A DNA stretch of 64,000 nt from a virus (Duplodnaviria > Heunggongvirae > Uroviricota > Caudoviricetes). The stretch lies in the IMG/VR virus record IMGVR_UViG_3300045993_000138; one strand, given 5' to 3'. A program made the translations under genes and the position numbers. The notes beneath the pieces were generated by a model, which saw nothing but the letters and a program-made list of their open reading frames with translations, made no database searches and was not told the DNA's origin. Positions 4,450-24,796 of the stretch are shown here, one piece after another (within the stretch, counting starts at the first letter, position 1; each line of letters starts with the position of its first letter).

Positions 4450-5423
4450 TCATCATTAGTGATGCGTGGTATCCTCAAGTAAATGGGGTTGTCACTACCT
4501 ACACCAATATAATTCAAAACATAGATCATAATGTCTATGACGTAGAACTCATTGAGCCGAGTCAGTTCAAGACTATTCGCTTTCCCTTCTATAAGGAAAT
4601 TGAACTTTCTATTTGTACCAAGAATCGAATGAAGAATATTCTCAAGAATATGGAACCAGTACACCGTTTCCATATTGCCACAGAAGGACCATTAGGGGTT
4701 GCCGCAAAGCGAGCGTTGGATGAAATGGGTATTCGTTACACTACCGCATACCACACCAAGTTTCCAGAATACTTGAAAACTAATTGGGGATTTCCACTGA
4801 CTATTTCCAATGCATTTTTCAACTGGTTTCATAGAAAGTCTCGTATTGTCATGATGCCATCACCTTCTGTAGCAAAAGAAAAGGCACATTGGAATGTTCA
4901 GGTTTCTGGTAAGGGATATGATGAACATTTTATGTTTAGTTCGACCGTCGATGAAAATGATAATAAAATTCTTCTCTATGTCGGCAGAGTAAGTAAGGAA
5001 AAGGGTATCGAAGATTTCTGCCGATTACAGATTCCTCACACAAGAAAGGTTGTGGTTGGAAATGGTCCAGATAAGAAAAGATTGAAAAAGAAGTATCCTG
5101 ATGTAATTTTTGCAGGGTATAAATTTGGAAAAGACCTTGCTAGATATTACCAGTCTGCCAGTGTCTTCGTATTTCCAAGCAGAACTGATACTTTTGGAAT
5201 AGTTGTACTGGAAGCAATGGCATGTGGAACACCCGTAGCCGCATATCCAGTAACTGGTCCAATCGATCAAATTGTTAATGGTGTCAACGGTTACACAAGT
5301 CAAAGTTTGAGTAATGCAGTGGTGAAATGTTTTGCTATTTCACGTAAAAGTGTGTATAATAGTGTAAAGAATATATCGTGGAAGAAGTCTGCCGAGCAGT
5401 TTATTTCACATTTGGAGGGATGA
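4413..5423 (+). CDS. Glycosyltransferase family 4 (GT-B, retaining)
   Basis: N-terminal ISDAWYPQVNGV (Glyco_transf_4-like). C-terminal E-X7-E region FVFPSRTDTFGIVVLEAMACGTPVAA (Glycos_transf_1). Confidence 0.65.
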   Translation: MGDCGMVVKKRIVIISDAWYPQVNGVVTTYTNIIQNIDHNVYDVELIEPSQFKTIRFPFYKEIELSICTKNRMKNILKNMEPVHRFHIATEGPLGVAAKRALDEMGIRYTTAYHTKFPEYLKTNWGFPLTISNAFFNWFHRKSRIVMMPSPSVAKEKAHWNVQVSGKGYDEHFMFSSTVDENDNKILLYVGRVSKEKGIEDFCRLQIPHTRKVVVGNGPDKKRLKKKYPDVIFAGYKFGKDLARYYQSASVFVFPSRTDTFGIVVLEAMACGTPVAAYPVTGPIDQIVNGVNGYTSQSLSNAVVKCFAISRKSVYNSVKNISWKKSAEQFISHLEG

Positions 5424-5425
5424 TT

Positions 5426-6094
5426 ATGAGTAAGATTGATGTATTGAATGGTGGTTTCGTTAGACTAGTAGACTCAATGGGTTCTGATCTTTCAATCGTA
5501 AGAGCCGCAAGAGTATCGTATGACGCGGATTGGCGCGAAGGTGACGAGAAGAGTGATGCAAAACTCATTGGATATCTGATGAAGAATCGTCACACAAGTC
5601 CATTCGAATCAGTGACATTCACATTCGAAGTGAAGGCACCAATCTTTGTATTCCGTCAGTGGCATCGTCACCGCACATGGTCATTCAATGAAATCTCCGC
5701 GAGATACACAGAACTTGATGAAGGTTTCTATGTTCCAGAGTTAGATCAGATCACCACACAGTCAAAAGATAATAAGCAGATGCGAACGAATGAACAGCAT
5801 CCATTAGCACCAAATTTCCAATATATAATTGACTCAAAGTGTCAAGCTGCATTTGCCACATATCGCGCATTGATAGTTGATGGTTGCCCAAGAGAACTCG
5901 CACGTTCTGTGTTGCCAGTAGCAGCATACAGCCGCATGTTCGCAACTTGCGATCTACATAATCTTTTACACTTTATTCGTTTGCGTGATCACGAACATGC
6001 TCAGTATGAAATCAGAGTATACGCACAAGCCATGTTGGAATTGATTAGACCAATCGTTCCAATCGCCACGAAAGAATTTGAGACAACACTATGA
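5426..6094 (+). CDS. thyX: Flavin-dependent thymidylate synthase ThyX
   Basis: ThyX signature FRQWHRHRTWSFNEISARY (RHRx7S) and the full-length fold. RBS GGAGGG upstream of the ATG at 5426. Confidence 0.85.
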   Translation: MSKIDVLNGGFVRLVDSMGSDLSIVRAARVSYDADWREGDEKSDAKLIGYLMKNRHTSPFESVTFTFEVKAPIFVFRQWHRHRTWSFNEISARYTELDEGFYVPELDQITTQSKDNKQMRTNEQHPLAPNFQYIIDSKCQAAFATYRALIVDGCPRELARSVLPVAAYSRMFATCDLHNLLHFIRLRDHEHAQYEIRVYAQAMLELIRPIVPIATKEFETTL

Positions 6095-6357
6095 ATAACG
6101 AAGATTACAGACAGGGATATAGAGACGGTTGGCGCGATGCGCTAAGTCCTATTGTTCCAAAGAAACCATTTGAACCAGAGAATCCATTCATACCACCAAC
6201 TCTGCCACCATTTCCATACAATCCATCACCAGTTAAACAGAAAGACTATTCCTGTCCTGTGTGTGGAATAACATTCGAATTCGGCAAAGCATATGGGTAT
6301 GCTTGCGCTCAATCAAATTGCCCGTCAAAAATAACATCGATGAATATTTCAGAATGA
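6091..6357 (+). CDS. Small Pro-rich protein with zinc-ribbon motif
   Basis: CPVCG...CAQSNCP. ATGA overlap with the next gene. Confidence 0.3.
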   Translation: MNNEDYRQGYRDGWRDALSPIVPKKPFEPENPFIPPTLPPFPYNPSPVKQKDYSCPVCGITFEFGKAYGYACAQSNCPSKITSMNISE

Positions 6358-6824
6358 AACATAAGCATCACATTGTTCCAAAACATGCTGGTGGCACTAA
6401 CGATTCTTCTAATATTGTAGAATTAAGTGTTGCCGAACATGCAGAAGCACATCGTATACTATTTGAAACTTATGGTAGATGGGAAGATGAAATTGCTTGG
6501 AAAACTTTGAGCGGACAAATTGAAATAGATCAAGCTAGAAGATTGGCATCTTCTATTGCCAATAAAGGTAAAGTAAACAGTATAGAAACGAGAATGAAAA
6601 TCTCCATTTCTAGAACAGGACTCAAAGACTCAGAAGAAACTAGAAAATATAAGAGTCAACGATCTAGTGTGAAAGGGAAGAAATATTACCACAATGGTAT
6701 AATAGAATACAGATATTTGGTTGGATCACAACCAGAAAATTGGATTTTGGGTCGGCTTCCAACTGGAACCGAAAGAGGACATGACGGCAGATTTAAAAAT
6801 AAACAAAAGAAGGAAAGAGAATAA
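6355..6824 (+). CDS. HNH homing endonuclease (free-standing)
   Basis: HHIVPKHAGGTNDSSNIVELSVAEHAEAH HNH motif. Start trimmed to the ATG at 6355, which overlaps the upstream stop. Lies immediately upstream of nrdJ. Confidence 0.65.
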
Positions 6825-6825
6825 C

Positions 6826-8514
6826 ATGAAGAATGAACTACCAACAGTATACCAGCAATATATAGCAATCAGCAGATATGCTAGATATTTAGATGAAAGT
6901 GGAAGACGAGAAACTTGGTCAGAAACAGTCAATAGATATTTTGAGTTCTTTAAAAAGAGAACAGATAACAATAAGAAAATTCCTTGGAAGGAATTACAGG
7001 ATGCTGTTTTAAACCTAGAAGTAATGCCTTCTATGAGAGCATTAATGACTGCTGGACCAGCACTAGAAAAAGATAATGTTGCTGGATATAACTGTTCATA
7101 TGTTGTTATTGATAGTCAGAAAGCATTCGATGAAATCATGTATATTTTATGCTGCGGAACTGGAGTGGGTTTCTCAGTCGAATCTCGCTATACCAACAAG
7201 CTTCCAGAGGTTCCAGATGAACTACATCCAACAGACACCACCATCATGTTCAAAGACAGTAAGATCGGATGGGCAACAGGATACAGAGAATTTGTTTCTC
7301 TCCTATATTCAGGTAAGATTCCTCAATGGGATATCTCCAAACTCCGTCCAGCAGGAGAACGTCTTAAGACTTTTGGTGGTCGCGCATCTGGACCAGAACC
7401 ACTCGTAGATCTTCTAAAGTTCACACTCAACATTTTCAACAAAGCCCGTGGTCGCAAACTGACCACATTGGAATGCCATGACATCGTATGTAAAATCGCA
7501 GATATTGTTGTCTGCGGTGGAGTTCGCCGCTCTGCTCTTATTTCTCTATCTGACCTTAATGATGATTACATCCGTAACTCCAAGTCAGGAGAATGGTGGA
7601 CCCACAACGGTCAGCGATCACTCGCTAATAATAGCGCAGTCTATGAACAACGTCCAGACATGGACACATTCATGAAGGAATGGGTTGCACTATACATGTC
7701 TCGTTCTGGAGAACGTGGTCTGTTCTCGCGTGTTGCCTCACAGGCAGCAGCAGCAAAATATGGTCGCAGAGATCCAAAATTGGACTATGGTACGAACCCA
7801 TGTTCAGAAATCATCCTGCGTCCATACCAGTTCTGTAATCTGTCGGAAGTTGTAGTGCGTGCAGAGGATACACTGGAAACATTGAAGCGCAAGGTAAAGC
7901 TTGCAACCATTCTAGGAACACTACAATCTACACTCTCCGACTTCCGTTACATCAACAAGAAGTGGAAGAACAACACCGAAGAAGAAAGATTGCTAGGCGT
8001 TTCTCTGACTGGTATCATGGATCATAAGACACTCAATGGTTCAGTAAACTTTTCATCAAGTGGACAGAATGAAGAACTAGCACGTTGGCTCACAGAAATG
8101 CGTGAACTTGCTGTAAAAACCAACGTTGATCTTTCTAAGGCACTCGGAGTAGAAGCAGCAGCCGCAATCACATGCGTGAAGCCATCAGGGTGCGCAGATA
8201 TCGATACGAAGATTAAAACTTCGAACGGTATTATGACCATCGAAGAAATTTTTGAACATATGGGCTATGATATTCAAAATTGTAATCAGGGCGATTGGCT
8301 AGAGCCAACTAAAGATTTGCTAGTTTATGATGAAAATGATGAATTAAAACCAATCACTAAACTTTTCGTTAATGGATTTGCCGAAACCTATGAAGTTTCA
8401 GACGAGAACGGAAATACTTACAAGTTTACAGCAGAACATAAAGTTAAAGTTACAGGTAAAGGGTGGGTTCGCGTTGACGAACTTTCAGAAGGTGATGATG
8501 TCGTAAAGTTTTAA
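6826..8514 (+). CDS. nrdJ: Class II (B12-dependent) ribonucleotide reductase NrdJ, N-terminal extein fragment fused to N-intein half
   Basis: Class II RNR active-site region GTNPCSEIILRPYQFCNLSEV. The ORF ends with a Hint-like N-intein (starts CADIDTK...) and then a stop codon. True start is ATG 6826 (MKNELPTVYQQY). The track ORF start at 6721 is read-through from the HNH gene. Confidence 0.8.
   Translation: MKNELPTVYQQYIAISRYARYLDESGRRETWSETVNRYFEFFKKRTDNNKKIPWKELQDAVLNLEVMPSMRALMTAGPALEKDNVAGYNCSYVVIDSQKAFDEIMYILCCGTGVGFSVESRYTNKLPEVPDELHPTDTTIMFKDSKIGWATGYREFVSLLYSGKIPQWDISKLRPAGERLKTFGGRASGPEPLVDLLKFTLNIFNKARGRKLTTLECHDIVCKIADIVVCGGVRRSALISLSDLNDDYIRNSKSGEWWTHNGQRSLANNSAVYEQRPDMDTFMKEWVALYMSRSGERGLFSRVASQAAAAKYGRRDPKLDYGTNPCSEIILRPYQFCNLSEVVVRAEDTLETLKRKVKLATILGTLQSTLSDFRYINKKWKNNTEEERLLGVSLTGIMDHKTLNGSVNFSSSGQNEELARWLTEMRELAVKTNVDLSKALGVEAAAAITCVKPSGCADIDTKIKTSNGIMTIEEIFEHMGYDIQNCNQGDWLEPTKDLLVYDENDELKPITKLFVNGFAETYEVSDENGNTYKFTAEHKVKVTGKGWVRVDELSEGDDVVKF
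8191..8511 (+). mobile_element. Split intein, N-terminal half (IntN, ~107 aa)
   Basis: Begins with Cys1 directly after the extein sequence VKPSG. Hint N-terminal blocks are present. Terminated by a stop codon instead of continuing into an endonuclease domain. Confidence 0.7.
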
Positions 8515-8562
8515 AATACTAAATAGTGTTATACCGTCAGGAAGTAAAGAGGGTTTAATACT

Positions 8563-9183
8563 ATGAATTATAAAAAACTATACGAAGAACACCACGGACC
8601 AATACCACAAGATTATGAGATACACCACATAATACCCAGATATGCTGGGGGCACTGATGATATTTCTAATCTTGTGGCTCTCTCTAAAGAACATCATAAA
8701 AAAGCCCACATGGAAAGATATGAAAAATATGGTGACTTTAGGGATTTGTGCGCTTATCATATGATAGGATATAATTTCAGTGAGGCTCATCAAGTTTCTT
8801 CTTCTGAGGGTGGGAAGATTGGTGGAACTAAAGTTTATGATACTGGAGTTGGTATATTTCGCTCTGAAGAAGAAAGAAAAATTTGGGCTGCTATGGGTGG
8901 GAGAATTGGTGGAAAGATGCAAAAAGAAAATGGTCTCGGTATCCACACACCAAACAAAGAACTCAGATTACAGTGGGCGTCTAAGGGTGGTAAAGCATCT
9001 GGTGTATTTCAAGACCCAAAAAGACAGTCTGAATTTGGTAAACGTGGTGGAGTAAAGAACAAAGGATTTCGTTGGTATACTGATAATGAAGGAACCCATA
9101 AAAAGTATACACCAACACAGCAGATTAATGAAAATTTTGAAGATTTCATAAAAAGAACACAATTTAATAGAGGTAGAAAATGA
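8563..9183 (+). CDS. HNH homing endonuclease encoded between the two intein halves
   Basis: HHIIPRYAGGTDDISNLVALSKEHHKKAH. Has its own RBS and ATG. Its stop overlaps the C-intein ATG (ATGA). Confidence 0.7.
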   Translation: MNYKKLYEEHHGPIPQDYEIHHIIPRYAGGTDDISNLVALSKEHHKKAHMERYEKYGDFRDLCAYHMIGYNFSEAHQVSSSEGGKIGGTKVYDTGVGIFRSEEERKIWAAMGGRIGGKMQKENGLGIHTPNKELRLQWASKGGKASGVFQDPKRQSEFGKRGGVKNKGFRWYTDNEGTHKKYTPTQQINENFEDFIKRTQFNRGRK

Positions 9184-9287
9184 AAGTAGCAAAGATTAGA
9201 AAGACGGGAACCGCAACTCTTACAGCAGATATTGAAGTTGCTGATACACACTCATATCAGTTAGACAATGGTTGGGTGGTTCATAAT
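9180..9287 (+). mobile_element. Split intein, C-terminal half (IntC, 36 aa)
   Basis: MKVAKIRKTG...ADIEVADTHSYQLDNGWVVHN carries the canonical C-terminal blocks F/G ending in HN, followed by the +1 Thr of the extein. Confidence 0.7.
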
Positions 9288-9836
9288 ACAGTTTCACAAT
9301 TGGTTGACTCTGCTTCAGGTATTCATCCTCGTTATTCACAGTACTATATTCGCAGAGTACGTGCAGACAAGAAGGATCCTCTTGCAAACTTCATGATCAG
9401 TAAGGGATACGTTGCCGAAGAAGACTTCTATGGAAAATCAAATTGGGTATTCTCATTTCCAATGAAGGCACCAGAAGGCGCGGTTCTCACCAAGGATGTT
9501 ACTGCAATTGAACAGCTAGAACTTTGGAAGATCTATCAGGAACATTGGTGCGAACATAAGCCATCTATTACAGTATTCGTAGGTGACGACGAATGGATGG
9601 ATGTTGGAGCATGGGTCTATAAGAACATGACAGCAATTTCAGGAGTTTCATTCCTTCCAAGAGACACTGGATCATATCGTCAGGCACCATATGAGGAAAT
9701 TGATGAGGCTAAGTATAATGAACTTCTGGCAATTCAAAATGTCAGTATTGATTGGGTGGAGTTCAAGGAAGAAACTGATATGACTGTTGGTTCTCAAAGT
9801 CTTGCTTGTGTTTCTGGCGTTTGTGACATAACTTGA
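9180..9836 (+). CDS. nrdJ: NrdJ C-terminal extein fragment, translated with IntC leader
   Basis: After ...VVHN the sequence TVSQLVDSASGIHPRYSQYY continues the class II RNR C-terminal region. Confidence 0.75.
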   Translation: MKVAKIRKTGTATLTADIEVADTHSYQLDNGWVVHNTVSQLVDSASGIHPRYSQYYIRRVRADKKDPLANFMISKGYVAEEDFYGKSNWVFSFPMKAPEGAVLTKDVTAIEQLELWKIYQEHWCEHKPSITVFVGDDEWMDVGAWVYKNMTAISGVSFLPRDTGSYRQAPYEEIDEAKYNELLAIQNVSIDWVEFKEETDMTVGSQSLACVSGVCDIT

Positions 9837-10288
9837 ACAAGATTGGGAATAAATTCAAGTGGGGTACATATGACAACAATGGCAGGGTATGTCGTAAATG
9901 TCAGGTGTATAAAACTTGGGATAATTTTCATGCACACAGTGAATGTCCACATGGTAAAAACACTACATGTATAGATTGTAGAAAACCATTGTCCAAACAA
10001 CAATGGAAATCTAAAGACATTGTAAAGAAAATACTCCAGCGCGCAAAGAGTAGGGCTGTTTTAAGAGATAGAGATTTTGATATTGACGAAAGTGATATTG
10101 TGATTCCAGATATTTGTCCAGTTCTAAAAATACCGATGGTTCAACCTAGTATTGATAGAATTGATAACAGTAAAGGATATGTGAAAGGAAATGTTCGTAT
10201 CATTTCTAATAGAGCAAATACACTTAAAAACAATGCTGAAATTTGGGAATTGAAACTTATATTAGAAGATATGGAAAATCATGAGTAA
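9833..10288 (+). CDS. HNH endonuclease (HNH_3 / AP2-like) with N-terminal Cys-rich finger
   Basis: IDRIDNSKGYVKGNVRIISNRAN motif plus CRKCQ...CPHGKNTTCIDC. Apparent TTG start overlaps the nrdJ stop. Confidence 0.5.
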   Translation: MNKIGNKFKWGTYDNNGRVCRKCQVYKTWDNFHAHSECPHGKNTTCIDCRKPLSKQQWKSKDIVKKILQRAKSRAVLRDRDFDIDESDIVIPDICPVLKIPMVQPSIDRIDNSKGYVKGNVRIISNRANTLKNNAEIWELKLILEDMENHE

Positions 10289-11840
10289 TATGAAAGGCAT
10301 CCCCTCAGTGAGTTTTATCAATCTGAGGGAATGTAAATATAGACGATCCAAACTGCAAGAGCAATTAGATCAGCTTCGTGTTAAGACTAGACACGTTCAT
10401 ATTAATGAACGTTACTCTGACATCAAGAGTGAATTGAATGTAGAATGTCCAAGAGCCGATATCATGGATGATGTCGGTTTTGGAGTTACCATTTCTCATT
10501 TGGAATCAGTGAAATATTGGTATGAAAATACTAATGAACCTTATGCACTCTTCTGCGAAGACGATATTAATTTGATGACATCACAAAATTGGAATTTCAC
10601 ATTCCAAGATGTATTAGACAATCTTCCTAGTGATTGGGAAGCACTACAACTGATACGTATCAAAAATTTCAGCACTGGATATGATGGATCCGAAGGCATC
10701 AATTTCAGAGAAAGAGAATGGGACGATTGGGGTTGTGCTGCCGTATTCATGAAGAGAAGTTATGCCAGAAAACTTCTGGCAAGACATATTACTCCCACAG
10801 GATATAGATTAGATCTTGGACACATTCAACCTATTGTAGAGAATGTCATGCTATATGGACTAGGAAAGGTTTATAATCTACCTTTGTTCAGAGAATGGTT
10901 ATTCAAAGAATCTACAGATCCTTGGGATCTAGAACGTGGAGTGAAGGACGATCATAAGAAATCTAGTGATTTCATCCAAGATTTCTGGAGAAACAATACA
11001 AAATCCATAGAAGAGATAATGGGAACTGATAAGATGAAGCTTAGGGGATTTCCATCGATTACATATGTGAATTTGATCGGATCTGCCGATAGAAGAATGT
11101 TCATGGAGAATCAATTCAAAAAATACGATATTGAAAAACACACCAGACATAGTACACACAGATATGAAAACATATCAGACTGTTATACAGTTACGTGTAA
11201 AGGTCTGCTAGATCATGGGCATCCGGGGGTTGCTATTTCATTCTTAGAAGCTATTGAGGCTTGGTACGATCTGACAAATGAAGAATATGCAATATTCTGT
11301 GATGATGATTCTAGTTTTGAAAGCATTGATGATTGGTCTTTCACTTGGAAAGAATTCATGAAAAATCTTCCAGAAGATTGGGAATGTATTCAGTTGATTC
11401 GTATCAATGAGTGGGTCGATGGTGGCTACTTCAAGTATGATGAAACAGAGATTCCGGCACTCCGCATAAGAAAGAGACAGTGGGATGATTGGGGATCTTC
11501 GTTTATGCTTAAGCGTAGTTATGCCAAAAAATTGATTGATAAGTATAAAGTTGGTGATAGTTCATACGATTTTTCAATAGAAGATCCAGATTGGGGATAT
11601 CTACATCCTCTCATTGAGAACATTCTATTTCGAAATCTAGGTGTGGTCTACAGTTTTCCGTTGTTGTTGGAGCATCAATACTTTGATTCTTCGATTCATC
11701 CTGATTCGATTTCAAGAATCAGAGACACTGAGAACTTTAATCCTCTAAACCCTCACAATCTATCGTATACATATTATTCGAAGCTATGGAAAGAAGTCGG
11801 CAAAACAACTTCAATTGAACAAATGATGGGGAAAATTTGA
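10281..11840 (+). CDS. Tandem-domain glycosyltransferase family 25 (LPS-type beta-glycosyltransferase, Lic2B/LgtB-like)
   Basis: Two internally repeated ~240-aa units. Each starts with the GT25 motif (FINLRECKYRRSKL; VNLIGSADRRMF) and contains FC(E/D)DD and LP(S/E)DWE(A/C)(L/I)QLIRI. Confidence 0.55.
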   Translation: MSNMKGIPSVSFINLRECKYRRSKLQEQLDQLRVKTRHVHINERYSDIKSELNVECPRADIMDDVGFGVTISHLESVKYWYENTNEPYALFCEDDINLMTSQNWNFTFQDVLDNLPSDWEALQLIRIKNFSTGYDGSEGINFREREWDDWGCAAVFMKRSYARKLLARHITPTGYRLDLGHIQPIVENVMLYGLGKVYNLPLFREWLFKESTDPWDLERGVKDDHKKSSDFIQDFWRNNTKSIEEIMGTDKMKLRGFPSITYVNLIGSADRRMFMENQFKKYDIEKHTRHSTHRYENISDCYTVTCKGLLDHGHPGVAISFLEAIEAWYDLTNEEYAIFCDDDSSFESIDDWSFTWKEFMKNLPEDWECIQLIRINEWVDGGYFKYDETEIPALRIRKRQWDDWGSSFMLKRSYAKKLIDKYKVGDSSYDFSIEDPDWGYLHPLIENILFRNLGVVYSFPLLLEHQYFDSSIHPDSISRIRDTENFNPLNPHNLSYTYYSKLWKEVGKTTSIEQMMGKI

Positions 11841-20012: not shown

Positions 20013-20090
20013 GCCCTCGTAGCCCAATTGGCAGAGGCGGCAGGTTCAAACCCTGTTCATGTGTCAGTTCAAATCTGACCGAGGGCACCA
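20013..20090 (+). tRNA. tRNA, anticodon read as CAA (Leu by anticodon) with a class-I-like short variable arm, A73 and encoded CCA
   Basis: Acceptor GCCCTCG/CGAGGGC. T-arm GTCAG-TTCAAAT-CTGAC. Anticodon stem GCAGG/CCTGT with loop TTCAAAC. A TATAAATA motif lies ~10 nt upstream. Confidence 0.65.
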
Positions 20091-20246
20091 AATTTAGAGA
20101 GAAGACTATGGATGAATTACCAGAGAAATCTACGGATAGTCAGAAAACTGATTATCAGAAATTCTTAGAGAAGAGAGAAGCTGGTGAATTTATTCCAGAT
20201 TCAGAATTGGAAATGTATCTTAAACTTATAGAAGAAGTGAAGTAAA

Positions 20247-20555
20247 ATGTCAGTTTGGTCAACAACTCCAATTTCGTTAACTCCAGATATTGAAATATTA
20301 TCATGGTCTGTGCGTCAAATTCAAAATGGTGATCATCATCTTGTTGGATATAATGGAACAGAAATGGAGGGTCGCGTCTCTTCCAAGATTCTAAGTTTTG
20401 ATAACCCGACAAAGACTGCCATTACCGCATCTGGTAGAACATACAAGCTTGTTGGTGAATCTGGTTCTGATCCAGATGCCGAATATGTTTGGTCTGTTTG
20501 GAAAAGAATTAATAAAGTTAAGACTTTCGTGGATGTTTCTGATGAATATTCTTGA
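20247..20555 (+). CDS. Hypothetical protein
   Basis: ORF located between tRNA genes. Confidence 0.35.
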   Translation: MSVWSTTPISLTPDIEILSWSVRQIQNGDHHLVGYNGTEMEGRVSSKILSFDNPTKTAITASGRTYKLVGESGSDPDAEYVWSVWKRINKVKTFVDVSDEYS

Positions 20556-20580
20556 CTTTTAAAGAAATATCCTATATAAT
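20552..20580 (+). promoter_or_regulatory. sigma70-type promoter for the tRNA-Arg gene (TTGACT-N17-TATAAT)
   Basis: Perfect hexamers. The -10 ends 11 nt before the tRNA 5' end. Confidence 0.5.
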
Positions 20581-20591
20581 ATATTGACAAT

Positions 20592-20668
20592 GGCGCTATA
20601 GCTCAACTGGACAGAGCGGAAAGCTTCTACCTTTCAGGTTGTGGGTTCGAATCCTACTAGCGTCGCCA
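20592..20668 (+). tRNA. tRNA-Arg (anticodon UCU), CCA encoded
   Basis: Acceptor GGCGCTA/TAGCGTC. D-arm GCTC-AACTGGACA-GAGC. Anticodon stem GAAAG/CTTTC with loop CTTCTAC. T-arm GTGGG-TTCGAAT-CCTAC. Confidence 0.8.
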
Positions 20669-20692
20669 AATTTAAAGTGATATGGAAATTAT

Positions 20693-21355
20693 ATGATTGA
20701 ACACAATGGAAGCATCTACCTCTCGGGTGGAATGGAACGCGCAGTAGATCTAGGATCACAGTGGCGTATCCAAGTTTCCGAAGAAATCAAACATATGGGT
20801 TTCCTACCACTAGACATTACCGCACTGGATAAGGCATATACTGCCGTTCATGGTAAGGTCATTGCTGGTGAAGATGAACTTCACGATAAGTATAACATTC
20901 GCTATCAATTCATCTATACTGATCTACGTCTGATCATCGAAAATACAGATGCGGTAATTGCGTATTACGATGAACCGTTCAAGAACGGTGCCGGATCATT
21001 CGCAGAATGTCAGTGTGCCTATGATCACGGTAAGCCACTGTTCATTGTATCTGCGTTTCCGAAAGAACAGATGCCATCATGGTTGAAGGCACTTGCCACA
21101 AAGATTTTCTTTGACTTTGAAGATCTCTATGATTATCTTGCGAAGCTTCCAAAGCAGATTTTGACCACTAAGAAGTGGAGTACAAATCATTCATTTGTAT
21201 GTTCAATGTGTGGTGATGCTACCAAGAAAAGAGAATATCATTACGTTCTCAAGAGCAATCATCCATACTGTGACAATTGTTCGTGTGTAGTTGCGCAGAC
21301 TCACGCAAAGTATGCAGATCGTTATGAGTTTATCAGTGAGATTTTGGGGTTATAA
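20693..21355 (+). CDS. Nucleoside 2-deoxyribosyltransferase-like fold protein with C-terminal Cys-rich region
   Basis: SIYLSGGME ... [29 protein letters not shown] resembles the Rcl/NDT family. C-terminal CSMCG...CDNCSC. Confidence 0.35.
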
Positions 21356-21356
21356 A

Positions 21357-21629
21357 ATGCCGTATATTGTAGATGGAAAACGACTTTATCTTGACGATGA
21401 AATCAATGCTCTTGCGCGAGCAATCGAAGCAGCTTCTTCGGAAGAAGGTCGTGCTGGTAATCTGAACTACTCAATCACCAGACTTATTGATCGTCTTTAT
21501 GATCGTCGTTATTCGGAAATCAACGATGCCGTTGGTGTTCTTGAATGTGTAAAGTTGGAATTCTATCGTAGAGTCGCTGCACCTTATGAAGACAAAAAGT
21601 GTGTCGAAAATGGCGACGTTTACCGCTAA
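21357..21629 (+). CDS. Hypothetical protein
   Basis: ATG 21357 (MPYIVDG). The longer upstream ORF overlaps the previous gene. Confidence 0.35.
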
Positions 21630-21638
21630 ATAAAATTA

Positions 21639-21716
21639 CGCCCAAGTAGCGCAATCGGCAGGAGGCAGCAGATTTAAAATCTGTACAGTACGGGTTCGAA
21701 TCCCGTCTTGGGCACC
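21639..21716 (+). tRNA. tRNA, anticodon read as UAA (Leu by anticodon) with weak D-stem and short variable arm, A73 and CCA encoded
   Basis: Acceptor GCCCAAG/CTTGGGC. T-arm ACGGG-TTCGAAT-CCCGT. Anticodon stem GCAGA/TCTGT with loop TTTAAAA. D-stem pairing is poor. Confidence 0.55.
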
Positions 21717-21731
21717 AAACAGGAATATAAT

Positions 21732-21980
21732 ATGAGTAACGTGATTAGTGTGATGTCGATGACAGATGAAGATCTACAGAGATCATTGAATCTTGCTTAT
21801 ATCAATACATTGAAGTCTCTAGAAGTAGAAAAGTTTCTTACGAAAGAACAAGTCGAAGATCTTGAAGTCAATTATTTGATCGTTATCGAACGAAAGAGTT
21901 GGCTTCCAAAGTTTTTGAGTGAACGATTTGGTCTTACTAAAGACGATCAACTGATCACCAGATTGGTACGTAGAATCTAA
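21732..21980 (+). CDS. Hypothetical protein
   Basis: Start trimmed to ATG 21732, because the track start at 21708 lies inside the tRNA. Confidence 0.35.
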   Translation: MSNVISVMSMTDEDLQRSLNLAYINTLKSLEVEKFLTKEQVEDLEVNYLIVIERKSWLPKFLSERFGLTKDDQLITRLVRRI

Positions 21981-22216
21981 TGTTCGTTTCTCCTAATCCA
22001 GATTGTGTTGATGATTGTCGTTTCAGAGAAAATGGAGGAATTTCAACATTGAAGTATTATCCTCCAATCTACGATAAGACTGGTAGAAACACCAATCCAG
22101 ATCGTAACTGGCACACATCAGAAGTGACTTGTACAGTGTGTGGCGCACAATGGATTAAGAAACAGGTGGGGTCAGATACCCCAACTTTTACAAAAATATC
22201 TGCGGAAAAGGCTTGA
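21980..22216 (+). CDS. Small Cys-containing protein
   Basis: CVDDC...CTVCG motif. Confidence 0.35.
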   Translation: MFVSPNPDCVDDCRFRENGGISTLKYYPPIYDKTGRNTNPDRNWHTSEVTCTVCGAQWIKKQVGSDTPTFTKISAEKA

Positions 22217-22241
22217 CAGAGGACAAAATTTACTATATACT
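22213..22241 (+). promoter_or_regulatory. Strong sigma70 promoter (TTGACA-N17-TATACT) driving the downstream noncoding locus
   Basis: Consensus -35 with a near-consensus -10. No ORF follows for ~460 nt. Confidence 0.5.
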
Positions 22242-22249
22242 ATGTTATA

Positions 22250-22570
22250 TTGATTGGATACTGCAAACCAACTAAAATGAAAAGGTATTGGCGTAAAACC
22301 CACATCCGACTGCCCCAACAGTAAATGGGTGTTCTCTGAGATACATGAGATAAGGTTAGTTTCCGTAACAACTGCCAATCAGATTTGAATTTTTTTAGAA
22401 TAGGTTCAGCAAACCAAAAATGCTTGGGAGAAATCCCAAACCAGCAAGCCTAGTCCTCTTAAGGGACGAGTTATAAGGTTTAGTAAAACCCGACTATTCT
22501 GTTGATTTTAGGATACTTGCAGCAATCCAACACTACTATTGTAAAGTAAAAAGGTATCCTGTTGAAATTT
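22250..22570 (+). ncRNA. Noncoding repeat-containing RNA region (candidate Y-RNA-like / structured RNA modules)
   Basis: No ORF >60 aa. Repeated units each contain ..CAGCAA(A/T)CCAA..AAAATG.. and paired arms (AGGATAC...GTATCCT; GGGAGAAATCCC). GTAAAACCC(N)CGACT occurs twice. Confidence 0.3.
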
Positions 22571-22687
22571 GGGATCAGTTCAGCAACTCTAAAATGGAAA
22601 CCAGTAGGTCGTGGGTTCGAATCCCGCTGTCATCGTAAGATGACATAGCTCAGTTGGTAGAGCAACAGGCAAATAAAAGTTGATCCC
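22571..22687 (+). ncRNA. Circularly permuted tRNA-like module enclosed by a terminal helix (YrlA-type Y RNA candidate)
   Basis: Order is terminal helix GGGATCA, then variable/T-arm (GTGGG-TTCGAAT-CCCGC), acceptor 3' strand TGTCATC-G, loop TAA, acceptor 5' strand GATGACA, TA plus D-arm GCTC-AGTTGGTA-GAGC, and terminal helix TGATCCC. The Rsr-like gene starts 19 nt downstream. Confidence 0.5.
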
Positions 22688-22705
22688 GTTTGTTATAGAA
22701 GGAAT

Positions 22706-24121
22706 ATGAAAATGAACTCATTTGTAAACGCAGTTAAGACCGTTCCAGTTCTCAAGCGTACTGAGAATGGCATGAAGGCACAGGCATCAACAATGTCTGC
22801 TGTTGTCGATCTTTTCTACAAGATCGGTGGTTCCCGTGGAATGCAGATCGTTCCACAGTTCGAAAAGGCATATCAGGATAATCCAGACCTAGCACTTCGT
22901 GTTGCTCAGTGGGCACGCGATGTCCGTGGTGGTGCTGGTGAACGTCAGCTATTCCGTGATATTCTTCTACACCTAGAAGCGCATCACACCGATGTTCTTC
23001 TTGGAACACGCCTACTCAACAACGTCGCAGAAATCGGACGTTGGGACGATCTCCTAATCTTCACCAATGGTGTTGTAAAGGCGAAGGCATTCGGCATCGT
23101 CGCGGAAGCACTCAAGATCGGTAACGGTCTTGCGGCAAAGTGGATGCCACGTAAGGGTTCGGTTGCGGCTGAACTTCGTGCGTACCTTGAACTATCACCA
23201 AAGGCATATCGTAAGCTTGTTGTTGGTCTATCCAACACAGTCGAGCAGAAGCTTTGTGCGCGTGAGTTTGAGAAGATCAACTACTCACACGTTCCATCAC
23301 TTGCGATGTCACGTTACATGAAGGCATTCTCCAAGAATGACGCAGAACGTTTCGTTGCATATCGTGAAGCCCTAAAGGCTGGCGATAAGACTGTAAAGGT
23401 AAATGCTTCGGCAGTATACCCATACGATGTTATCAAGTCTCTACGTGCTGGTGATAAGGACGTTGCTGACGCAATGTGGAAGGCACTTCCAGACTACATG
23501 GATGACTCAAATGTTCTACCAATGGTAGACGTTTCAGGTTCGATGGGATGTTCAGTTGGTGGAAACGCCAACCTACAGTGCATCGATGTTGCTCTTTCGC
23601 TCGGTCTATACTGCGCGGATAAGAACAAGGGTGCATTCAAGGACATGTTCCTAACATTCTCGGGTTCACCAGAACTTCTTGTATTGAAGGGAACACTTTC
23701 ACAGAAGATGGTTCAGATGAATTCTTCTCGTTGGGGAATGAACACCAACCTTCACGCTGCTTTCGAGCGTGTACTTGAGACTGCAATCAAGGGTAAGGCT
23801 TCTGCGGAAGACATGCCATCGATCATGCTTATCCTCTCGGACATGCAGTTCGACATGTGTACGTCTTACGATGACTCTGCAATGCAGATGATCTCTCGTA
23901 AGTATGAGAAGGCTGGATATAAGCTTCCAACCATTATCTTCTGGAATCTCAATGATCGTGCTGGAAATGCGCCAGTCTCATTCAACCAGAAGGGTGTTGG
24001 TCTTGTATCAGGATTCTCACCTTCGATCATGAAGGCTATTCTGTCCTCGGACATGGATACGCTTTCACCAGAAACCATCGTCCGCGATGCGGTGATGATT
24101 GATCGTTACAACTACGTCTAA
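22706..24121 (+). CDS. TROVE/vWA-domain protein, Ro60 (Rsr)-like
   Basis: vWA MIDAS motif VDVSGSMG at the position expected for Ro60 (LALDVSASM). TROVE-like N-terminal region. Genomic coupling with a tRNA-like ncRNA. Confidence 0.5.
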   Translation: MKMNSFVNAVKTVPVLKRTENGMKAQASTMSAVVDLFYKIGGSRGMQIVPQFEKAYQDNPDLALRVAQWARDVRGGAGERQLFRDILLHLEAHHTDVLLGTRLLNNVAEIGRWDDLLIFTNGVVKAKAFGIVAEALKIGNGLAAKWMPRKGSVAAELRAYLELSPKAYRKLVVGLSNTVEQKLCAREFEKINYSHVPSLAMSRYMKAFSKNDAERFVAYREALKAGDKTVKVNASAVYPYDVIKSLRAGDKDVADAMWKALPDYMDDSNVLPMVDVSGSMGCSVGGNANLQCIDVALSLGLYCADKNKGAFKDMFLTFSGSPELLVLKGTLSQKMVQMNSSRWGMNTNLHAAFERVLETAIKGKASAEDMPSIMLILSDMQFDMCTSYDDSAMQMISRKYEKAGYKLPTIIFWNLNDRAGNAPVSFNQKGVGLVSGFSPSIMKAILSSDMDTLSPETIVRDAVMIDRYNYV

Positions 24122-24145
24122 AAGCGTGTTGTATTGTTGAAAGTA

Positions 24146-24180
24146 AGTGCTAGTCGGTTTTAATCGGCTAGCACTTTTTC
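24146..24180 (+). terminator. Rho-independent terminator after the Rsr-like gene
   Basis: GTGCTAGTCGG-ttttaat-CGGCTAGCAC followed by TTTTT. Confidence 0.45.
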
Positions 24181-24278
24181 ATTTGGAGATTAAGATGATT
24201 AGTGGATACGTTATGCTAGCTTTGATCATCACTGCTATCGTTACTATGGTCGATTTGATTATTAAAAGTGAGTAGAAT

Positions 24279-24692
24279 ATGACACATGCAGTATTGAATC
24301 TGGACTTCATTACGGTTTGGAATCCAGAAACAAGTAGAACAGAGGTTAATATCTTCGCTGGAAATAACAGTGAACCCATTCTTGTTATTCCACTGAGAGA
24401 CATTGTGACAGCAGGAATTGCACAGGATCTTGACTATCAGGCTTCTGAGTTTTCTCAGCACAAGCCTTGGATGCACGAAACTGACATTGCAGAGAATCGT
24501 CTAGTTTCCAAGGAACTTCGCCAGCTATCGTTTGAATATGATGTTCTAGTGGACAATTACACTTCTGATTCTGGATTTGAAACAGAAGAGGAAATGCTAC
24601 AGGAACTTGTCAGAGAATCAGAGGAAATGGGATTGTATGAAGATCCCTATCTTTACTATGATCCAAGCCTGAACTATAATGGTGGACTTTAA
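24279..24692 (+). CDS. Hypothetical acidic protein
   Basis: ORF with RBS. Confidence 0.35.
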   Translation: MTHAVLNLDFITVWNPETSRTEVNIFAGNNSEPILVIPLRDIVTAGIAQDLDYQASEFSQHKPWMHETDIAENRLVSKELRQLSFEYDVLVDNYTSDSGFETEEEMLQELVRESEEMGLYEDPYLYYDPSLNYNGGL

Positions 24693-24699
24693 GAATCTA

Positions 24700-24712
24700 G
24701 TGTGATATAATG
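24700..24712 (+). promoter_or_regulatory. Extended -10 promoter element (TGTGATATAAT) for tRNA-Met
   Basis: TGn plus TATAAT, 8 nt upstream of the tRNA 5' end. Confidence 0.35.
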
Positions 24713-24719
24713 TAAATAT

Positions 24720-24796
24720 ACGGCTGTAGCTCAGTGGTAAGTAGCAAGCGCCTCATAAGCGTTAGGTCGTTGGTTCAACCCCAACCAGTCGTACCA
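24720..24796 (+). tRNA. tRNA-Met (anticodon CAU; could also be lysidine-modified Ile), CCA encoded
   Basis: Acceptor ACGGCTG/CAGTCGT. Anticodon stem AGCGC/GCGTT with loop CTCATAA. T-arm GTTGG-TTCAACC-CCAAC. Confidence 0.75.

Follow-up and report, generated by a model that had tools for sequence, protein, structure and literature searches.

A putative fractured class II nrdJ gene of a metagenomic phage, with a free-standing Mob-like HNH endonuclease gene between the halves of a split intein

The closest described counterparts of the locus treated here are the fractured genes reported by Dassa et al. 2009 (NAR 37:2560, PMC2677866). The endonucleases found in them were only of the GIY-YIG and Vsr-like types, HNH nucleases in that position being merely predicted, and at the two nrdJ loci of the set, NrdJ-1 and NrdJ-2, the intein follows directly after the thiyl-radical cysteine (NPC^S; here and below a caret marks the insertion point). 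The NrdJ-1 split intein, now in wide use, derives from these loci. A second counterpart, without an intein, is the nrdA-a/mobE/nrdA-b locus of phage Aeh1, whose two gene products, as summarised in PMC3045599 from its references 8, 32 and 33, assemble non-covalently via short tails. The Aeh1 authors speculated that these tails descend from a split intein (PMC3045599). Here we describe a class II ribonucleotide reductase (RNR) gene, nrdJ, located in a 64,000-nucleotide stretch of a Caudoviricetes phage (IMG/VR record IMGVR_UViG_3300045993_000138; this whole stretch is referred to as the window). The gene is broken within an intein, and a free-standing HNH endonuclease gene stands between the intein halves. 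The window locus belongs to a large metagenomic phage, and for the exact protein encoded by the N-terminal half (P0001) a contig of up to 214 kb is documented.

According to both the open reading frame map and the raw sequence, the locus consists of five co-oriented genes in the order HNH-A, nrdJ N-half, HNH-B, nrdJ C-half and an open reading frame of 151 residues. The features that make up the fracture itself are the following:

6826-8514, + strand: nrdJ N-half open reading frame, N-extein plus N-intein (ATG at 6826, stop TAA at 8512-8514)
6826..8190, + strand: nrdJ N-extein, 455 residues, C-terminus ...ITCVKPSG (Pfam, RTPR alignment)
8191..8514, + strand: N-intein (IntN), 107 residues, first residue Cys, coding 8191-8511 and then TAA (TIGR01445, profile search)
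8523..8564, + strand: predicted RNA hairpin within the 48-nucleotide spacer (8515-8562) (folding energy)
8563..9183, + strand: HNH-B, free-standing gene of a Mob-like HNH homing endonuclease, 206 residues, between the intein halves (Pfam HNH)
9180-9836, + strand: nrdJ C-half open reading frame, C-intein plus C-extein
9180..9287, + strand: C-intein (IntC), 36 residues, MKVAKIRK...ADIEVADTHSYQLDNGWVVHN, C-terminus ...GWVVHN (TIGR01443)
9288..9836, + strand: nrdJ C-extein, 182 residues, Thr+1 first (TVSQLVDSASGIH...), end ...LACVSGVCDIT and stop codon (alignment with RTPR and TIGR02505)

The preliminary description of this DNA, drawn from its letters, had proposed an nrdJ gene fractured by a split intein whose halves flank a free-standing HNH gene, and all of these elements are present at coordinates within 1 nucleotide of those given there. 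The N-extein indeed ends in ...VKPSG and is followed by Cys1, the intein N-domain (given as about 107 residues) and a stop codon. The 206-residue HNH gene has its own ribosome-binding site, a Shine-Dalgarno sequence GAGGG 5′ of the start, and the 36-residue C-intein is in frame with a C-extein opening with Thr+1. Three stops stand in the N-half frame before HNH-B (the N-half's own TAA at 8512, TAG at 8524 and TAA at 8545), and read-through from IntN is therefore excluded. At the other end, the TGA stop of HNH-B shares the tetranucleotide ATGA with the ATG of the C-half, which is in a different frame from HNH-B. A search of positions 5500-11000 for group I introns and other Rfam families returned no match at E <= 0.1. 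The three-gene layout is seen again in different samples, on independent metagenomic contigs, and can therefore be due neither to chance nor to an assembly error.

The exteins, once freed of the intein, reconstitute an RNR sequence, as had been anticipated. The spliced sequence of 637 residues (455 + 182) matches the Lactobacillus leichmannii ribonucleoside-triphosphate reductase, RTPR (PDB 1L1L), with E = 2.5e-44, and the alignment is gapless across the junction, where the query reads ...TCVKPSG^TVSQLVDSASGIH and 1L1L reads ...TTVKPSGTVAKLAGASEGMH. The RTPR model TIGR02505 matches the same sequence with E = 1.3e-97; this match reaches the last profile position, its best stretch covering positions 177-723 of 724. 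Within the N-extein, Pfam identifies Ribonuc_red_lgC (1.2e-8) and RNR-II_ins_dom (1e-6), and the thiyl-radical motif NPCSEI is intact. By these similarities the enzyme is a B12-dependent class II RNR of the RTPR type, an enzyme of DNA-precursor synthesis, and probably one of the monomeric, adenosylcobalamin-dependent RTPRs. The intein is inserted at KPSG^T, a conserved NrdJ motif. As NPCSEI is intact inside the N-extein, this intein is an allele other than NrdJ-1 and NrdJ-2.

The intein halves, when fused, match the TIGR01445 intein_Nterm model with E = 4.3e-5 and the TIGR01443 intein_Cterm model with 17.1 bits, over its cut-off of 15.6. A profile built from six homologues matches the Npu DnaE intein (8.5e-5), the NrdJ-1 intein (3.9e-4, over part of the profile) and also DnaB inteins. 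In the profile alignment the natural break coincides with the Npu DnaE split site, and IntC aligns with the Npu DnaE IntC, IKIATRKYLGKQNVYDIGVERDHNFALKNGFIASN. The residues of a Class 1 intein, namely C1, T80-A-E-H83 (block B), D124 (block F), H142-N143 (block G) and T+1, are invariant in the six homologues. The two halves carry opposite charges: IntN has a net charge of -12, the first 10 residues of IntC of +4.

HMMER, run exhaustively over 1.84 billion representative proteins (clusters at 50% identity), revealed 323 relatives of IntN, 111 of them at E <= 1e-10. The match reaches the C-terminus of the protein in 117 of the best 150 relatives, which identifies these 117 as naturally split. The insertion site in the relatives is mostly (V/I/T)KP(S/A/E)G^C; in some the intein lies at APTG^C, the homologous motif in other RNRs. 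An intein of the same family in P0287 is located at KPSGNS^C and is followed, in frame after IntN, by a GIY-YIG-like motif (YIIYNK...KYIGCQYG); a GIY-YIG domain may be fused into this intein.

Exact-protein look-ups retrieved a set of informative relative loci that form an allelic series. The preliminary description had suggested looking for an uninterrupted nrdJ at the same site in a related phage, and such a gene exists in L063. Its 634-residue NrdJ reads ...VKPSGTVSQL (...ITCVKPSGTVSQLVDSA) through the empty site, its N-extein is 94.5% identical to that of the window, and at the nucleotide level the L063-type empty site is ...GTGAAGCCATCAGGG^ACA.... At the same site P0304 (...ITCVKPSG^C...VSHN^TCSQLVD), P0330 and others have mini-inteins of this family that are contiguous. 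The three-gene fracture with a 206-residue HNH protein and the ATGA overlap is common to L066, L068 and L071, whose exteins are, respectively, 81% (81-82%), 78% and 61% identical to those of the window. Counting L072, L073 and L074 as well, at least six further contigs show the same stops, spacer and ATGA overlap, and they come from different samples and assemblers. Finally, split halves without an HNH gene occur in L069 (31-nucleotide gap) and L070 (61-nucleotide gap). The gap of L070 is composed of the first 12 nucleotides of the spacer and the last 54 nucleotides of the HNH open reading frame (...NENFEDFINRTQFLRGRK and the stop), and retains the Shine-Dalgarno sequence of the C-half. This remnant marks L070 as derived by deletion from an L071-type element.

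Two of the wider searches for relatives were negative. Megablast of positions 6000-10600 against cultured phages gave only a 241-nucleotide nrdJ match of 73% identity, that is, no close cultured relative. A scan of IMG/VR with the N-half found 62 loci whose matches all end at about residue 469, none of them with an intein; this suggests uninterrupted alleles, which were not inspected individually. Some of the fractured relatives display further complexity. In L073 (445-4827; NCBI FLOH01000319.1) nrdJ is fractured twice, into three open reading frames: a second split intein is present at ...FILM^CGTGVGF, with a 302-residue NUMOD3 endonuclease between its halves, in addition to the KPSG^T intein with a Mob-like HNH gene. 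The N-halves of L072 (782-3457) and L074 (324-3437) have 891 and 1037 residues, as opposed to the usual number of about 560, and presumably carry one or more extra contiguous inteins upstream of the split one.

Comparison of these alleles uncovered footprints of mobility. The exteins of the window and L066 share about 74% nucleotide identity, and their synonymous sites are saturated (proportion of synonymous differences, pS, 0.69-0.76). In the tract of about 8400-9300, which includes the 3′ end of IntN, the spacer, HNH-B and IntC, identity is about 93% and pS 0.25-0.27; at the protein level IntC is 100% and the HNH protein 96% identical. Alleles that bear the intein have therefore recently exchanged the HNH gene together with its immediate surroundings. 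The pair L071 and L070 displays a different pattern: the exteins are about 70% identical, and in a stretch that starts about 20 nucleotides ahead of the intein's first codon and stops about 25 nucleotides beyond its last one, identity rises to 95-100%. This would be expected if the whole element had been transferred to a diverged nrdJ along with short co-conversion tracts. We also considered co-conversion of the extein flanks between the window and L063, where identity dips near the junction. As the upstream dip corresponds to a loop found to be hypervariable in every comparison made, it is not counted as evidence.

All parts of the locus are under purifying selection. The ratio of non-synonymous to synonymous substitution rates (dN/dS) is 0.06-0.10 in the HNH gene; the two intein halves give 0.03-0.26, the exteins 0.06-0.22. 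Together with the conserved HH...N...H residues of the nuclease, this argues against a pseudogene and in favor of an active nuclease. The high-identity tracts and the dN/dS of the HNH gene likewise indicate, at the level of sequence comparison, recent homing and a working nuclease.

The HNH-B protein matches the Pfam HNH family with E = 6.9e-7, over the gathering score, and HNH domains of the PDB with 1.6e-6; its HNH core is N-terminal. Its closest annotated relatives in cultured phages belong to the T-even Mob family, including genes labelled 'Mob-like HNH'. In tblastn searches T4 MobB is 37% identical to HNH-B (E = 3e-6), and T6 MobE, whose gene adjoins nrdA, is 32% identical over 133 residues (E = 1e-4), a similarity that can only be called remote. 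The HNH-B family includes 159 proteins at E <= 1e-3; across 117 of them, conservation of the HH...N...H residues is 95% or higher. In all seven loci examined (the window and six others, whose HNH proteins can be as little as 50% identical to HNH-B) the gene resides inside a fractured nrdJ, with the intein-bearing N-half on one side and a C-half of about 220 residues on the other. Nuclease activity, a target site and homing cleavage are predicted for HNH-B. The C-terminal two-thirds of the protein (8800-9100) contain repeated Gly-Gly-Lys-type motifs (GGKIGG, GGRIGGK, KGGKASG, KRGGVKNKG), and some sources label HNH-B homologues 'general stress protein YciG'. This repeat region is probably the DNA-binding part of HNH-B.

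The spacer hairpin (-17.4 kcal/mol, z = -4.1) pairs the GAGG of the HNH-B Shine-Dalgarno sequence as well as the A and U of the start codon. Its counterpart in L071 has a perfect 13-bp stem (z = -4.5), and L068 has a hairpin in the same place with an unrelated stem sequence, GCCAAC/GTTGGC (z = -3.5). We infer that the hairpin has a regulatory role. Hairpins of a similar kind occur upstream of the endonucleases of published fractured genes (PMC2677866), and for one over the mobE ribosome-binding site of Aeh1 PMC3045599 refers to its reference 33. The C-half has a Shine-Dalgarno sequence of its own within the 3′ end of the HNH-B gene, and translational coupling at the overlapping stop and start codons is only suggested. 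A spacer sequence, ACTAAATAG, may be compared with the T4-type late promoter, TATAAATA, but no promoter is claimed.

These observations can be combined into a model for the origin and function of the locus. A mini-intein would have settled at KPSG^T, in a conserved loop of NrdJ, and a Mob-like HNH gene would have entered it at the canonical endonuclease-insertion position. The insertion would have brought a stop codon, a spacer whose hairpin masks the ribosome-binding site, and a reading frame of its own, resulting in three products: NrdJ(1-455)-IntN, the HNH protein and IntC-NrdJ(456-637). The NrdJ halves would be translated separately, the C-half relying on its Shine-Dalgarno sequence inside the 3′-terminal part of the HNH gene. 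IntN, which is acidic, would then associate with the basic N-terminus of IntC to form the HINT fold. Trans-splicing is predicted to proceed via Cys1, the Thr and His of block B, the Asp of block F, the terminal His-Asn and Thr+1, and would ligate ...VKPSG to TVSQL... to yield the RNR of 637 residues. During mixed infection, the HNH enzyme might cut alleles lacking the element, whether the nrdJ site is empty or carries an intein but no HNH gene, and recombinational repair would copy the element into the cut allele.

We estimate the probability that the locus represents a fractured class II nrdJ, made whole by protein trans-splicing and spread by HNH homing, at roughly 85%. Several observations weigh against this reading. 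The preliminary description had left the intein to be checked with hidden Markov models, and detection was only partial: TIGR01443 is above its cut-off and the splicing motifs are present, but TIGR01445 reaches 24.4 against a cut-off of 24.5, and Pfam Intein_splicing (PF14890; 1.6e-4) is sub-threshold with 21.9 against 35.8 bits. On the extein side, the TIGR02505 score of 327.8 bits is slightly under the cut-off of 340.05. The HINT fold has no independent confirmation, because the single-sequence AlphaFold2 model of the fused intein is unusable (predicted local distance difference test, pLDDT, 48). Threonine at position +1 is a rarer nucleophile than cysteine or serine, which may bear on the rate and efficiency of splicing. 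Moreover, if the hairpin lowers HNH-B translation, coupling of the C-half to it would be counter-productive.

The alternative that survives best, although we consider it improbable, is that the NrdJ chains are never ligated. The intein halves would then constitute a high-affinity dimerisation module holding together a non-covalent two-chain RNR. Aeh1 provides the precedent, since its RNR, split by a Mob-type HNH gene of the family to which HNH-B also belongs, works as two chains held by tails that may themselves be split-intein descendants (PMC3045599). However, a docking module would not need the splicing residues and Thr+1, yet all of these are invariant even in loci whose exteins are down to about 60% identical. 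In addition, the contiguous mini-inteins of the same family and site must splice in cis for the enzyme to be functional, and we consider it unlikely that an insert of 143 residues at the conserved KPSG^T would be tolerated.

Even less probable is a decaying nrdJ, inactivated by the nuclease insertion in a phage that relies on the RNR of its host or on another RNR. Homing-endonuclease insertions can pseudogenise genes, and degeneration is assumed for some phage RNR genes with several insertions (PMC3653736). Yet both exteins and intein halves have remained under strong purifying selection (dN/dS about 0.03-0.26) across saturated synonymous divergence. There are no frameshifts or stops apart from the designed break, the arrangement is kept in phages with NrdJ only about 60% identical, and L070 has retained the ribosome-binding site of the C-half after losing the HNH gene. 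Finally, although the window is metagenome-derived and in-frame HNH domains are known in some inteins (PMC2677866), an assembly or sequencing artefact, or the misreading of an ordinary contiguous intein that has its HNH domain in frame, is scarcely credible given the three in-frame stops between IntN and HNH-B, the frame change between HNH-B and the C-half, and the recurrence of the same stops, spacer and ATGA overlap on at least six further contigs.

The reading as a trans-spliced fractured gene does not involve the two genes that flank nrdJ, both lying outside the fracture:

6354..6824, + strand: HNH-A, free-standing gene of an HNH-type homing endonuclease, 156 residues (PHROG 655)
9833..10288, + strand: endonuclease VII-like (HNH-superfamily) open reading frame, 151 residues, 3′ of nrdJ (PHROG only)

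Both had been called HNH genes. For HNH-A this holds by its match to PHROG 655 'homing endonuclease' (5.1e-15), the Pfam HNH match being sub-threshold (0.0021, 18.6 vs 21.4 bits), and only its start had to be moved, from 6355 to 6354. It is a distant paralogue of HNH-B, to judge by 34% identity over the catalytic core (E = 5e-15). The 151-residue protein, a candidate mobile nuclease, is endonuclease VII-like and of uncertain activity. It matches phrog_3322 'endonuclease' (3.6e-28) and phrog_1035 'endonuclease VII' (7.8e-24) and, weakly, a PHROG 'Srd anti-sigma factor' (1.2e-8), and gave no match in searches of Pfam and the PDB. It reads IDRIDN where HNH_3-type proteins have DH, so that the catalytic His is apparently an Arg; it may not be an active nuclease. 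Owing to the PHROG-only placement and the IDRIDN sequence, the label 'HNH' is only loosely justified here. The overlapping stop and start codons noted earlier are found at the following boundaries: between HNH-B and the C-half, between the nrdJ stop and the TTG start of the 151-residue open reading frame, and between the ATG of HNH-A and the TGA of the upstream open reading frame 6091-6357. HNH-A and nrdJ, however, do not overlap but are 1 nucleotide apart (TAA-C-ATG).

The positions flanking nrdJ differ between relatives. L063, from a closely related phage, has a GIY-YIG gene 5′ of nrdJ (5167-5724) and a SegE-like GIY-YIG/NUMOD3 gene 3′ of it (7905-8528), at the positions taken in the window by HNH-A and the 9833-10288 open reading frame, and nucleotide identity between the two nrdJ genes, about 95%, drops to 52-62% at both gene ends. 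In L066 thyX is followed directly by nrdJ, with no gene at the HNH-A position. The window also encodes primase, thyX, DNA ligase and four tRNA genes; the latter (Leu-CAA, Arg-TCT, Leu-TAA, Met-CAT; 20013-24796) lie 3′ of the nucleotide-metabolism module.

The locus confirms the 2009 prediction that HNH nucleases can fracture intein-bearing genes. One phage lineage holds all intermediates of the proposed pathway from a contiguous to a naturally split intein, making the model testable with defined allele pairs, and both homing of the whole element and exchange of the HNH gene alone have left sequence footprints in it. The locus also links the intein-mediated rescue of Mob-split RNR genes to the tail-mediated one seen in Aeh1. 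The intein clade (111 clusters, mostly split, with Cys1, Thr+1 and a native ...KPSG/TVS... junction), for which we found no characterisation, could supply orthogonal trans-splicing tools. A more far-reaching interpretation, to which we would give slightly less than even odds, is that the Mob-like HNH family, not described before in this role, makes up a third class of fracturing endonucleases, one specialised for the KPSG^T intein site of phage class II RNR, and forms, with its intein, a large and mostly split Thr+1 clade. According to the same interpretation, the locus would be the living counterpart of the ancestor postulated by Crona et al. (2010) for Aeh1, and the relatives would represent a complete homing cycle. 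What is new here is the HNH nuclease, the new RTPR-type NrdJ site, Thr+1, the allelic series and the transfer footprints; the fractured-gene kind was already known. In the literature searched, no HNH-type fractured nrdJ is described, but most subscription journals and InBase lay outside this search, and a prior description is possible.

Among known systems, a superficially similar nrdJ is that of Rhizobium phage RHph_N3_13 (L075), where two partial genes surround an HNH-like open reading frame annotated as 'Srd decoy'. Unlike in the window, that open reading frame is carried by a group I intron (RF00028 Intron_gpI, 83.6 bits, 2466-2715), and the repair is at the RNA level; the intron match rules this gene out as a fractured gene. 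CRP-118 supplied the second of the two cultured-phage nrdJ hits that came in two pieces, and for it Rfam gave no match.

The Npu and Ssp DnaE inteins, the best match of the intein profile (E = 8.5e-5), share with the window intein the break position, the sizes (about 102 + 36 vs 107 + 36 residues) and the combination of an acidic IntN with a basic IntC N-terminus. They differ in the host protein, and their +1 residue is Cys. Moreover, the DnaE halves are encoded at separate loci, with no endonuclease between them (PMC2677866).

Closer in layout is uvsW of Salmonella phage S16, a cultured T4-like phage, in which gp114, gp114.1 and gp115 repeat the three-gene arrangement and IntN is 36% identical to that of the window. 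The host gene is different, the nuclease is TnsA/Vsr-like with NUMOD3, and the +1 residue is Cys. In the S16 sequence (L077, HQ331142.1 104626-107352) gp114 consists of UvsW_N and a Hint N-fragment, gp115 opens with a C-intein ending in ...NGALAHN^C, and the TnsA-like/NUMOD3 open reading frame gp114.1 is annotated as hypothetical. The preliminary description had stressed that in the window the fracture is seen in intact genomic context. The context is intact, but it is not unique: many long metagenomic contigs provide it as well, and because fractured genes occur in complete cultured phage genomes such as that of S16, it is not new either.

In Aeh1, as in the window, the gene for an RNR catalytic subunit is split by a Mob-family HNH gene, the homing-endonuclease gene overlaps the downstream half, and a hairpin sequesters its ribosome-binding site. 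In contrast to the window, Aeh1 has no intein, the gene is a class Ia nrdA, and the split falls between active-site cysteines and not at the KPSG/APTG loop. The hypothetical ancestor with an intein, on which the Aeh1 authors speculated, would have resembled the window locus.

The fractured genes of Dassa et al. remain the nearest kin, as the preliminary description had recognised when it assigned the locus to a known arrangement; it is nevertheless not the NrdJ-1 allele, differing in its KPSG^T site and HNH nuclease. In both cases a DNA-metabolism gene (nrdJ included) is present as two adjacent co-oriented open reading frames in phage DNA, the break in the split intein coincides with the canonical endonuclease-insertion position, and a hairpin precedes the endonuclease gene. 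Even the derived form lacking the endonuclease, seen in relatives of the window, has its parallel in gp41-7. On the other hand, the KPSG^T site lies about 130 residues further downstream than the NPC^S of NrdJ-1 and NrdJ-2, a Mob-like HNH endonuclease takes the place of the GIY-YIG and Vsr-like enzymes of the published loci, the +1 residue is Thr, and the similarity to the NrdJ-1 intein is only remote. Thus, in every structural respect the window locus is a fractured gene as defined by Dassa et al., and the remaining property of that class, trans-splicing, is predicted for it from the conserved residues and purifying selection.

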